From contig OZ024741.1 in assembly GCA_964016885.1 (NCBI GenBank), forward strand, positions 340,008,001 through 340,072,000: a stretch of 64,000 nucleotides of DNA, given 5' to 3'. Numbering within the stretch: the stretch's first letter is position 1; each line of letters begins with the position of its first letter. Under the pieces are notes generated by a model, which searched no databases, was not told where the DNA came from, and saw nothing but the letters and a program-made list of their open reading frames with translations. This stretch comes from Eledone cirrhosa. Its lineage: Eukaryota. The position numbers were made by a program, and so were the translations under genes. Below, piece by piece: positions 7,931 through 49,026 of this stretch.

Positions 7931-8125
7931 TAACGAAGGAAATGTGGTAAGGAACCAGGTGGACCATAACGCACCAAAGTACTCAATACTTAGGGTAGTA
8001 GAGTGGGTAATAGGAACAAGTAAGACCCCGACGGCTGAGCTCAAGCCGTTTCGACGGCTAATTCTGTACAGAATTAGCCGTCGAAACGGCTTGAGCTCAG
8101 CCGTCGGGGTCTTACTTGTTCCTAT
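7931..8125 (-). mobile_element. Hairpin-ended half-hammerhead element, copy 1
   Basis: Perfect 116-bp palindrome 8010-8125 centred on CTGT|ACAG plus an ~80-bp tail shared with five other copies. Flanked by (TA)n. Confidence 0.9.
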
Positions 8126-8479
8126 ATATATATATATATACACAAATATATATACAAACATATATGAACATGTATATATATATATACATATATATATATA
8201 CATATATATATATATATATACATATATATATATACATATATATATATACATATATATATACATATATATATATATACATATATATATATACATATATATA
8301 TATATACATATATATATACATATATATATATATACATATATATATATACATATATATATACATATATATATATACATATATATATACATATATATATATA
8401 CATATATATATATACATATATATATACATATATATATATATATATATATATATATATATATATATATATATATATATAT

Positions 8480-8643
8480 ATAGGAAAAAGTATGACCCCC
8501 GACGGCAGAGATCAAGCCGTCGAAACGGTTTGAGCTCTGCTGTCGGGGTCATACTTTTCCTATTACCCACTCTACTACCCTAAGTATTGAGTACTCTTGT
8601 GCGTTATGGTCCATCTTGTTCCTTACCACAATTCCTTCGTTAT
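8480..8643 (+). mobile_element. Hairpin-ended half-hammerhead element, copy 2 (centre deleted)
   Basis: Same tail and arms as copy 1 in opposite orientation. Confidence 0.88.
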
Positions 8644-8782
8644 TTATATATATATATATGTGTGTAAATGAAGTAATTCTGTCGGAAAAGTCCAGGAAAA
8701 AAGAGTGCTCTATGTAGGTAACAGAGCTTAATAGTAATAAACAACATAAGGCACTTATTCAATTTACCAGTGGTTTCTTAAT

Positions 8783-8841
8783 TTCATTCTGATGATTGAA
8801 AGCAAAATGTTTTTGCTTTTAAGAAACCACTGGTAAATGGA
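8783..8841 (+). ncRNA. Type I hammerhead ribozyme (intact core)
   Basis: TTCATT-CTGATGA-TTGAAAGCAAAA tgt TTTTGCTTTTAA-GAAA-CCACTGG-TA-AATGGA. Stem I is 6 bp, stem II 12 bp, stem III ACC/GGT, and cleavage is predicted after A8835. Confidence 0.8.
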
Positions 8842-8892
8842 ATAATTGCCTGATGTTGTTTATTACATAACTATATATATATATATATATAG

Positions 8893-9010
8893 TTATGAGT
8901 TCAAATCCCGCCGAGGTTTACTTTGCCTTTCATCCTTACGGGGTCGATAAAATAAAGTACCAGTAATGCACTGGGTAATTGCTGGCCTTGTGCCTAAAGT
9001 AGAAACAATT
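8893..9010 (+). mobile_element. tRNA-headed SINE (Meta-type core), 5'-truncated
   Basis: GAGTTCAAATCCC (B box), then GCCTTTCATCCTTACGGGGTCGATAAAATAAAGTACCAG, then tail GTAGAAACAATT. Confidence 0.85.
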
Positions 9011-10974
9011 ATATATATATATATATATATATATATATATATATATATATATACACGTATATATATATTCACACGTATATATATATATATATATTCACAC
9101 GTATATATGTATGTATATATATATACACATATACTTACATTCACAGACTTACATGTATACAAACCCATTACACACACACATATCTTCATTCACACACGGA
9201 CCTGAAAGTTCTATTGAAAATTCTTAAAACAAAAGTCAGCTCTGAAAGAGAAGCAGAAAATTGCAATACCATCTTCATTTTTTATCCTTGATTAAAATCC
9301 CTTTGAAATTTTTTTCCTTCCCGCTCTTTTTATTTCACATGAAATAAAAACCTAAATATATTTCTTTGTAAAGAAATTAAGAATTGTAGGATAACCTCGC
9401 CCCACCGTCGTGTTCCTTTAAAAAATGTATATATGTAAAAATTGCTCAAAGATATTTGAAGATTAAACACTGGCATGATTGGAAAGACAGAGAATAAAAG
9501 AATGTTTTCCTGTCGAGATTAAACAATTCTTTGAAAATAGGTCTTTGTATACTTTTTAGTTCTCTTTTAACTTTATTTTTTTATATGTGTGCAGTTTAAA
9601 AAAATTATAGGTATGTATGTATGTATGCATGTATTTTTGTATGTATGTATTTTGTATGTTTGTATGCATGTATTTTTGTATGTATGTATGTAGATATGTA
9701 TGTATGTATTTTTGTATGTATGTATTTTTGTATGTATGTATATATGTATGTATGTATGTGTGTATGTATGTATGTATTTTTGGATGTATGTATGTATTTT
9801 TGTATGTATGTCTGTATGTATGTATGTATTTTGTATGTATGTATGTATTTTTGGATGTATGTATGTACGTATATATGTATATATGCGTACACACATACAC
9901 ACACGCATATATATACATATACAATAAACCTATACTTTCTGATGTGTGTGCAGTTTAAAAAATTACATGTAAATATGTATATGTGTATGTATTTTCTATG
10001 TATGCATGTATATGTATATATGAGTATATATATACACACATATATACATATATACAAATATATATATATATATATATATATATATATATATATATATAGA
10101 GAGAGAGAGAGAGAGAGAGAGAGATATATATATATATATATATATATATATATATATATATATATATATATATATATATATATATATATATACACACACA
10201 CATATATATATATATACAATAAACCTATATGTATAGTATTTATACATATTTATTCACATATATACATTCATACACAGCATATATATATATCGTAATGCGT
10301 ACGCGCGTGTGTGTATGATGTCGTTGGTGGTCGTGGGCATGATGGTGGCTGTCGTTATTGCTACTGCTCAGTCTTGCATGGGTTGTACCTCTGATAAGAG
10401 GTTTCTTGGCATAACCTCTTTTTTCTACTAAACCACCTGAAACCGCCTCTCTGTCTACGATAGCAAAACTGTTTATTTAAAAGTGTTTATATTTATGTAA
10501 GAGCCTTCTATATATTTATAAGTAAAATTATGTTCCAAATGCCAGCTTGATGATCAGAATGGTAGTTATATTACTAAATCCTCCCAAATTCTTACATAGA
10601 TTCAAAATAATTTTCAAAATCATTGGCAGTACCTTTCATTAGAAACATGGGAAGCGGGCAAGAGTTGAATACAGAATACTACAAAGTTAGATGAGACACC
10701 ACAAATCATGCTACCAGACATTCTAATAATTCTGGGACTCTAAAGTTAATATCAGTGAGATTTGAACTCTCACAAAAATGCCGGCACAAATACCTCACCC
10801 TCTAACGACACTACCAATTCGACACTTAAATATATGGAGCAAAAAAAAAATGCACAAGGGATATTTTTGCCGTTTGGCCTAATGGGTATGTTGTTGTACT
10901 CACAATCATAAAGTTGTAGGTTCGATTTTGTATTCTTGGGGAAGACACGTTATTTCCCGTTGCTTGTCATAGAA

Positions 10975-46934: not shown

Positions 46935-47305
46935 ACAGCTGCATTTATCTTGCTTTATGTTCATACGAGTTATCACCAAGTCACAACCAGTGACCTCAAG
47001 AGACAACAAGGTCCGCCATGTTCAAGAAAGAACATACATACTCACAGATGCATCTTTAGGTGTTTAGACTTGTGATGTACTTATATTGACAGAATCTTCC
47101 TTAGTATATGGGCAGTTCCCATTAGTACTATCTTTTGTATTTCTCCTATACGCGGGTTTCCTGGGATTTGCGATAAGTAGTCATTAGACCCCTTAGGTAT
47201 CATTCCTAGAGCGCCTACAACCAGTGGTATTGTTTTAGTTCTCAATTTCCACATTTTTCCAATTTCTATCTCCAGGTCCTTATACTTGCTCAATTTTTCA
47301 AATGT
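46935..47305 (-). mobile_element. 3' fragment of a second R4-like LINE family
   Basis: KYKDLEIEIGKMWK..PLVVGALG..IQKIVLMGTAHILRKIL, with (TAA)n on both sides. Confidence 0.85.
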
Positions 47306-48097
47306 TATTATTATTATTATTATTATTATTATTATTATTATTACGTATATATGAATATATAATATGTTTAAAAGTAGGTATCGAGATATATATTATTTAT
47401 GTATATAGACAAAGTTAAGGGCCGAAACACTTGCTTGGGGGAAGCTTTTTCTCTGAAGACCTTCTGCTATCCAGCTCTCTTGTTTATGTGTGTAAGTGAG
47501 TATACGTGTGCAAGTATATGAGTGTATATGTGTATTAATTATTGATACGTACACATACATTTAACTAGTCATGTCTTTAACTACACATCGATAAAAGAAA
47601 AGCTGTTCTCATTACACACACACACACACATATATCTATGTGTGTGTGTGTGTGTGTGTGTGTGTGTGTGTGTGTGTGTGTGTGTGTGTGTGTGTGTGTG
47701 TGTGTAAATATATATCCAGGGATGTAACGCGGAGTTACTGTAGATAACGATGCCTAAACAGCACATCATACCCCCTACCCAATAGTAAAAGACCGCAATC
47801 TTTCATCTCATATCATACACCACATCCACATCCACACCACACGCAGCACCTCAGCCTCAATACATACACGCCAACATGTCTAGGGTTAGCCAAAATGCCA
47901 CATCCCGCTACTCACATCAACCTTTGCTCCTCACCACTAACTCGTCACGACGCTCGCCCCCCCCCCCCCCTACTATATTACAGGCGAAAACATTCCTCGT
48001 AATTAATCTACCAATCAAAACAACTTAAACTGACCAACATATGAACGTTGGACTTTTTGTATGCCATGTATATTCATTCTGTCATTACTACCACAGA

Positions 48098-48186
48098 GGT
48101 CCGACGAGCTTTTGATTCGAGAGTCGGGCTAGATCGATACAGATCGAACCTTGCTTGAGCTGATCAGTAGCGAAACGCGTATCACC
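48098..48186 (+). ncRNA. Degenerate hammerhead ribozyme
   Basis: CCGACGA-GCT...AGC-GAAA-CGCG-TA followed by AATAAA. One core substitution and a weak stem I. Confidence 0.45.
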
Positions 48187-48282
48187 AACCAATAAACGTA
48201 ATAAAGGAGAAACCATATATATAGATATATGCATAAGGAAAGTATATACTTTCAGATGTTCAATCATCTAACAGAAAGGTAT

Positions 48283-48325
48283 ACGATGCTGACGATAGCT
48301 AATAAGCTTGAAACTAGTACATCGT
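48283..48325 (+). ncRNA. Minimal (Penelope-type) type I hammerhead ribozyme
   Basis: ACGATG-CTGACGA-T-AGCT aata AGCT-T-GAAA-CTAG-TA-CATCGT. Stem I is 6 bp and stem III is palindromic. Confidence 0.82.
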
Positions 48326-48867
48326 TCCTGTCTCAGTGTTGAACAAAAGGGCGACGATGGTTGCCGAGCACTGTACGACGTAATTCGGGCTGTTTGTTTA
48401 CAAACAAACCGAGCATTATAATAAATGTTCGGTAAACCCATACGTACATATATATATGTGTGCATGTATGTATATATATATACATTCTAATGTGCGTCTG
48501 TACACATTTATGTATGTACGTATACATACTTATATTTAGGTATCAGCCGTACTAAGAGTGAGAAATGAAATTTCGTTTCATTCTTTTCCATATATACATA
48601 TATATATATATTCGTGGAAACCACTGCATATTCACGGAATCTTAAATATCTTATGCGATTTTTTTAATGGCTTTTATGGTGGCAATACGTATTTTTAACG
48701 CTAAATTATTAATAACAATATATAGTATTTGCCCGTCTATTGGACGCTCCTTTGACATTTATAGGGATTTTTATGGACCATGTCCAATATTCGCGGTTTT
48801 TTCACTATTCGTGATTGCTCTAGGATTACGTAAGCCCCACGAATACGGTGGGACTATTGTATATATA

Positions 48868-49026
48868 TAGGAAAATGCTCAAGACCCCGACGGCAGAGCT
48901 CAAGCCGTTTCGACGAAACGGCTTGAGCTCTGCCGTCGGGGTCTTGAACATTTTCCTACTACCCTAAGTATTGACTACTCTGGTGCGTTATGGTCCATCT
49001 GGTTCCTTACCACACTTCCTTCGTTA
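48868..49026 (+). mobile_element. Hairpin-ended half-hammerhead element, copy 6 (centre deleted)
   Basis: Palindromic arms plus the shared tail, in (TA)n. Confidence 0.88.

Follow-up and report, generated by a model that had tools for sequence, protein, structure and literature searches.

A 64,000-nucleotide stretch of the Eledone cirrhosa genome (assembly GCA_964016885.1, contig OZ024741.1, positions 340,008,001 to 340,072,000; hereafter the window) carries six copies of a short palindromic repeat, each located between (TA)n tracts at the places given in a preliminary description of this DNA. We consider it probable that these copies are short, two-armed, truncated insertions of a hammerhead-bearing Penelope-like element (PLE) that were generated by twin priming, i.e., by both strands of the target priming reverse transcription of the same RNA. 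A more specific version of this idea holds that every insertion was made by one ribonucleoprotein (RNP) copying a single RNA twice, from two fixed starts, one per target strand, so that palindrome centers form a fossil map of RNA 5′ ends (the promoter start in stem II of the hammerhead, and the hammerhead cut). To this version we give slightly better than even chances.

Two-armed copies and their parent element

Each copy consists of one sequence present twice, as head-to-head arms, of which one carries a tail and the other lacks it. With the G of GAAA set as position 0, the tail-less arm ends at ~+42 while the tailed arm runs ~95 nt further, to ~+137, and the common palindromes measure 160–195 bp. 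The arms carry a type I hammerhead reduced to its 3′ half, as the preliminary description had recognized. In copy 1, for instance, the tailed arm (7931..8065, minus strand) comprises the 3′ strand of hammerhead stem II, GAAA, stem III, the cleavage triplet, the 3′ strand of stem I and the ~95-nt tail, and it meets, with a 4-nt self-complementary overlap at the junction, a tail-less arm (8066..8123, plus strand) of the same 58 bp. These arms match over 2 × 58 bp with 0 mismatches, i.e., the 116-bp perfect palindrome already reported. The match between arms spans 55 bp with 1 mismatch in copy 3 (tail-less arm 15960..16013, minus; tailed arm 16013..16152, plus), 45 bp with 1 mismatch in copy 6 (tail-less 48868..48913, minus; tailed 48912..49026, plus, with a short deletion where the tail begins), and 39 bp with 2 mismatches in copy 5 (tailed 38601..38726, minus; tail-less 38725..38771, plus). 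In copy 4 it spans 35 bp with 1 mismatch (tailed 26521..26645, minus; tail-less 26646..26703, plus); both arms of this copy extend to −18/−19, and an internal deletion in the tailed arm spans the cleavage site. Copy 2 retains an ungapped match of 24 bp with 3 mismatches (tail-less 8480..8520, minus; tailed 8515..8643, plus), and its junction lies at a 5-nt microhomology between stem II and stem III. Decamers that mark subfamilies agree between the arms of one copy and differ among copies, as had been observed before, though the relevant stretch is absent from one arm of copy 4. A blastn search of the window with copy 3 recovered the same six copies and no seventh, and two further insertions lie within the next 200 kb of the contig.

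Two features of the earlier anatomy required revision. The long “stem-loop” ascribed to the whole family is present in copies 1, 3, and 4 only, while copies 2, 5, and 6 fold back no more than ~5 nt from GAAA. Nor is the palindrome centered on the stem II loop: the apparent stem-loop is the 3′ strand of stem II lying opposite its own inverted duplicate.

The parent also differs from the form that had been predicted for it, a hammerhead with the canonical CTGANGA core. Genome pattern searches for such a parent gave 8 and 36 matches, and none of the 38 loci inspected was genuine: the 8 of the first search were point variants (the inverted arm being the usual source), and the 30 inspected from the second were chance matches at fold centers or foreign joins. 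Two of the 38 loci extended further upstream than the others, and from that added sequence longer copies were reached and, through these, reverse transcriptase (RT) and GIY-YIG frames. At one locus (L251), a complete 3,118-bp unit that contains a 719-aa open reading frame (ORF) is accompanied by a partial copy and an inverted arm. Here, the tail continues into the 5′ untranslated region (UTR), and it thus represents the start of the next unit. This layout fits the partial tandem arrangement of a PLE (its pseudo-long terminal repeats, or pLTRs) together with an inverted 5′-truncated copy and a one-sided tail.

The 719-aa ORF encodes an RT followed by a C-terminal GIY-YIG endonuclease (motifs FDIES, SMGATD, YRDD, and VIYQC..YIG) and bears signatures of the Hydra clade of PLEs (SDKTG at 116, CNCPDRSIC at 572, CNLCSEE at 670, and CKH at 698), while in RLRWR at 35 an R replaces the K of the Hydra-clade RWK motif. 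Pfam and PDB scans of the ORF returned no matches. Of 8,000 proteins scored in a homolog search, 2,054 reached E ≤1e-20, mostly at 38–43% identity, and the best homolog carries PF01541, which we take to be the GIY-YIG domain. The six window copies derive from this element, as their sequence is the end of an RT–endonuclease unit, and the link to PLEs drawn in the preliminary description is thereby borne out. Judged from its protein motifs, the parent is an endonuclease-bearing (EN+) PLE that we file as Hydra-like; an assignment to Naiad, considered on the basis of motifs, is ruled out by the C-terminal position of the endonuclease. The copies are not non-LTR retrozymes either. Those consist of non-coding units in tandem, every one of which contains a complete hammerhead (bioRxiv 10.64898/2026.07.22.740005), and the copies described here are inverted pairs without the 5′ core strand.

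Arm pairing, arm limits and the hammerhead genome-wide

An exact family 17-mer occurs 67,602 times in the 3.0-Gb genome, and at least 15,990 places have two arms ≤60 nt apart (i.e., short palindromes). As exact-pattern matches number in the tens of thousands and reversed-pattern controls gave 0 matches genome-wide, the family cannot be attributed to chance. Palindromes were parsed in a main sample (the first 50 listed on contig C1) and in a second sample of 40. Arms were found to cluster by copy, as had been claimed: they differ by 0.98 mismatches per 27 nt within a copy and by ~4.2 between copies (47 palindromes, after removal of three indel-bearing rows from the 50), and 34 of 47 have the same subfamily label in both arms, whereas shuffles average 8.6 and never exceed 19. 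This clustering, together with 45 distinct centers among 49 mapped palindromes, indicates that palindromes were made repeatedly, and the earlier view that the hairpin was regenerated many times stands.

Pairing of the arms follows a strict rule. Exactly one tailed and one tail-less arm were present in 49/50 palindromes of the first sample and 40/40 of the second (89/90 overall), as well as in all six window copies, while free choice of start site would give such pairing in about half. Both arm ends stop at a TAT that is common to the element and the (TA)n target, in keeping with the microhomology proposed earlier; tail-less ends run directly into TATATA in 41 of 50 cases, and most of the remainder are shifted or variant forms. 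Separately, two rare palindromes (L015 and L024) have both arms reaching into the tail, and one of the L015 arms goes on into the 5′ UTR.

The minimum-free-energy (MFE) fold of the L251 pLTR contains a three-way type I hammerhead junction with a long stem II (~60 nt) and a GUC triplet ending at +22. The core of the parent reads UUGANAA, a U3-A8 variant that stands in place of the canonical hammerhead by which the Hydra clade is recognized. Among 56 ribozyme copies, collected with a pattern that allowed C3 and G8 and held the other core letters fixed, U3 is present in 53 and A8 in 56, N7 takes all four bases, and most copies have the GUC triplet. The same UUGANAA core was counted by eye in 31 of 33 arms found by DNA similarity alone. 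In a minority of copies (three of the 56; L209 is an example), C3 occurs with A8, a mismatch of the 3-8 pair for which poor cleavage is predicted. An Rfam scan of the window, which contains half-ribozymes only, gave no matches.

Upstream, arm ends concentrate inside stem II. Exact arm matches number 29,695 to −18, 6,117 to −26 and 4,483 through the core near −60 (approximate survival counts, as the patterns differ in length). Within one subfamily group, the counts fall from 9,294 (−19) to 7,073 (−21), 4,904 (−22), 3,830 (−23), and 3,597 (−25), such that the fall-off finishes at −22/−23, and none of 98 parsed arms extends beyond −24. Positions −18 and −22 are each occupied by an A, within motifs (TYAGT and TCATTY) that resemble the initiator consensus of promoters. 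An internal initiator/downstream promoter element (DPE) promoter has been described in Drosophila Penelope (PMC2377424). A splice acceptor at −18/−17 was considered and rejected, as the arms contain those bases and show no continuation into an upstream exon. At three loci (L039, L053, and L060, at ~1290–1515; see also L004), the stem II end of an arm is joined to another repeat family with its own terminal hairpin, maybe a second PLE or the outcome of a template switch.

A second, rarer class of insertions (688 places for a subfamily-limited pattern) includes palindromes centered on the predicted ribozyme cut. In the second sample, +23 is the start of 28 of 80 arms, and half of the palindromes (20 of 40) have both arms starting within +22 to +25, mostly with A/T inserts. 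Genome-wide, paired +23 ends with an A/T insert gave 175 strand matches (most places match on both strands), and only 51 mixed junctions link a +23 arm to a stem II arm. Since this is the reverse of what independent stalling would produce, a limit shared by both arms is favored, and independent stalling of RT at stem III is disfavored as the source of the +23 ends. Decay of CpG is an unlikely source of the single A/T insert, as a single C insert was rare, by eye, among the 50 places listed. Long arms are likewise paired: 46 of 100 have a head-to-head exact-core partner within 8 kb, compared with a background share of 6.6%. Paired limits and paired long arms together suggest that the limit is a property of the template RNA copied by both arms.

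Proposed twin priming and its alternatives

In L1 twin priming, the second strand of the target primes on the same RNA and an inversion results, and in retroviral strong-stop synthesis the cDNA runs off the nearby 5′ end of the RNA. The inversions of L1 join non-overlapping parts of the element, whereas here both cDNAs would copy the same stretch and so yield a palindrome. We propose that a (TA)n target is nicked on both strands and that each strand then primes RT on the same RNA, which is thus copied from two sites. One RNP would carry two RT sites, one per start, with one start used per target strand, and the TAT overlap with the target may assist priming. Each cDNA would then run off the 5′ end of the RNA, and microhomology-mediated end joining by the host would fuse the two cDNA ends. 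Under this model, the −18/−22 limit would mark a transcription start inside stem II and account for the common 160–195-bp palindromes; an mRNA starting there would hold half a ribozyme and be unable to cut its own 5′ end. The +23 limit would mark the 5′ end of ribozyme-cleaved RNA and account for the tiny palindromes, while kilobase arms would stem from RNAs without a nearby 5′ end (read-through, multimeric, or circular). The overlaps of 0–1 nt, templated inserts and poly(A) found at junctions are what would be expected of end joining.

Several observations weigh against this model. Both the start site and the cleavage are deduced from genomic arm ends. The upstream limit slopes across −12 to −22 and is not confined to one base, and a cap signature at −19 is ambiguous: G (5,781) outnumbers A (959) six-fold, yet C (5,653 by subtraction) is about as frequent as G, and most of the G may derive from the partner arm. 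The folding energy of the parent is no better than that of shuffles (z −0.46), and both core strands are unpaired in the MFE fold in only 26 of the 56 ribozyme copies. Both samples consist of first matches on contig C1 with exact motifs required, which favors young copies, and at two of 30 loci (L199 and L200) the partner of a long arm may be a short arm. In addition, in vitro work on Poseidon PAc of Anolis (Frangieh et al., 2024, PMC11167929) saw non-homologous priming and the same starts on both strands, i.e., starts independent of strand, whereas here both starts share TAT with the target and each insertion has one of each.

Twin priming might also operate with a different cause of the upstream limit, namely nucleolytic cleavage within the stem II apical loop, or a block to RT by folded or protein-bound RNA. 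We regard this as unlikely, while noting that the limit falls at the edge of the stem II apical loop in the predicted fold, that ends scatter over ~10 nt, and that no clear cap-derived G is seen. However, a structural stall would be expected where RT enters the stem on its 3′ side and not past the G+C-rich part, the pairing of long arms points to a property of the template, and position −19 is restricted to T or C in the common parent variants.

The preliminary description had instead envisaged a cDNA that snaps back on stem II and primes its own copying, and a related scheme, in which antisense RNA folds and self-primes, has been put forward for rotifer PLEs (Arkhipova et al., 2013, PMC3846280); in either case, later deletions would have to reshape the center. 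The near-identity of the arms within a copy is in line with such an origin, as are several recurrent junctions that leave 3–6 unpaired bases, the size of a hairpin loop. Arm lengths oppose it, because fold-back of a tail-primed cDNA yields a second arm no longer than the first. Among 49 palindromes (one of 50, without a tail, was left out), the tailed arm is longer in 24, the tail-less arm in 18, and the two are equal in 7; in the 33 clean junctions without inserts, these numbers are 15, 14, and 4, respectively. In 10 long two-armed insertions, the tail-less arm is longer in 6, the tailed arm in 3, and the two are about equal in 1, and these kilobase arms of unequal length obey the same one-tail rule. 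The natural stem II loop is never retained, junctions with 0–2 unpaired bases are common, and junctions at the stem III microhomology occur in both orientations (4 vs. 3). Arms starting at −18 also adjoin (TA)n, poly(T), or a partner truncated far downstream, so such an arm end needs no fold-back partner. Antisense fold-back alone, moreover, leaves the single tail in 89/90 palindromes unexplained, and the asymmetry of the arms here favors two target-primed cDNAs over the rotifer scheme. While later asymmetric deletion could blur or hide a snap-back signature (a further reservation about twin priming), we judge self-priming to be quite improbable, and the snap-back of the preliminary description is not upheld.

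It is highly improbable that a few master palindromes were transcribed and copied as a non-autonomous family akin to short interspersed nuclear elements, a process that would make the one-tail rule trivial. Some junctions do recur at many loci, but 49 palindromes show 45 distinct centers, more than one subfamily is represented in two of the three junction types that recur, and long insertions have each their own junction while following the same one-tail rule. Finally, a DNA transposon or miniature inverted-repeat transposable element with fixed terminal inverted repeats, which the inverted repeats and TA flanks might call to mind, can be dismissed, as the repeats lie head to head, their centers vary, and their sequence is the end of an RT–endonuclease element.

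Relatives of the element and its significance

The window holds remnants of other retroelements. Positions 20487–21332 contain a fragment of a different Hydra-like PLE family, with 52–62% amino acid identity to the L251 ORF and an inverted piece at its 5′ junction, and smaller fragments are found at 49650–49787 and 51255–51476. An RT-like frame at 37269–37853 (minus strand) resembles what we take to be another PLE lineage. Between long inverted (TA/CA) tracts lies a broken non-LTR retrotransposon ORF (42214–45782, minus strand) whose motifs are presumably RT-like and restriction-like endonuclease, and a long tandem array with a 42-bp period and strong G/T skew extends from 56144 to ~64000. Of the words of the pLTR region, 36–43% are present in sequencing runs of two other organisms, such that relatives may exist elsewhere.

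The element shares with the Hydra clade (Craig et al., 2021, PMC8557442) a single ORF (RT followed by GIY-YIG at the C terminus), DKT instead of DKG, a CxCx5C linker, CxxC and CxH around E and N, and a (TA)n target, and with PLEs in general (PMC8557442) the partial tandem, the inverted 5′-truncated copy and the one-sided tail. Unlike the Hydra clade as described there, it has a 3.1-kb unit, a tail of ~95 nt rather than 30–40, a U3-A8 hammerhead with a ~60-nt stem II rather than a canonical one, and at least 15,990 short palindromes. As in Poseidon PAc (PMC11167929), where both target strands are nicked and extended in vitro, two internal RT starts downstream of the hammerhead bound the tail; in contrast to that system, in which no reads at the ribozyme cut were found, one class of insertions here ends at the predicted cut. 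Penelope of Adineta vaga (PMC3846280) likewise has head-to-head inverted pLTRs with junction palindromes, a tail on one side, and an initiator-like motif in the pLTR. A close parallel to the ribozyme is offered by known PLE hammerheads, among them the U3-A8 variant of Schistosoma Cercyon (Cervera and de la Peña, 2014, PMC4209133); shared features are the type I form, the location in the pLTR, U3-A8 covariation and the G10.1-C11.1 pair. That study reports paired PLE hammerhead motifs on opposite strands, 100–700 bp apart; unlike the PLE hammerheads it covers, the one described here has a long stem II and a stem III of 5–6 pairs, enough to permit folding as a monomer.

Much of this is already in print, namely the PLE family type, inverted copies, tail, (TA)n targeting, U3-A8 core, and two RT starts. 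Strict one-tail pairing, shared limits and insertions that end at the ribozyme cut were not found in the literature searched, which covered few subscription papers; the supplements of PMC8557442 and PMC11167929 may list related cases.

How the inverted pLTRs and tails of PLEs form, and what role the hammerhead plays, were posed as open questions by Craig et al. (2021; PMC8557442). In this genome, thousands of natural junctions serve to separate self-priming from twin priming, and the family yields base-level predictions for RNA 5′ ends and cleavage. If the proposed model is true, a promoter start buried in stem II would disarm self-cleavage at the 5′ end, and the +23 class would prove, from the genome, in vivo cleavage by a U3-A8 PLE hammerhead as well as continued reverse transcription of the RNA once cut. 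For the organism, at least 15,990 short near-perfect inverted repeats in one genome represent a possible source of double-stranded RNA or of DNA instability.

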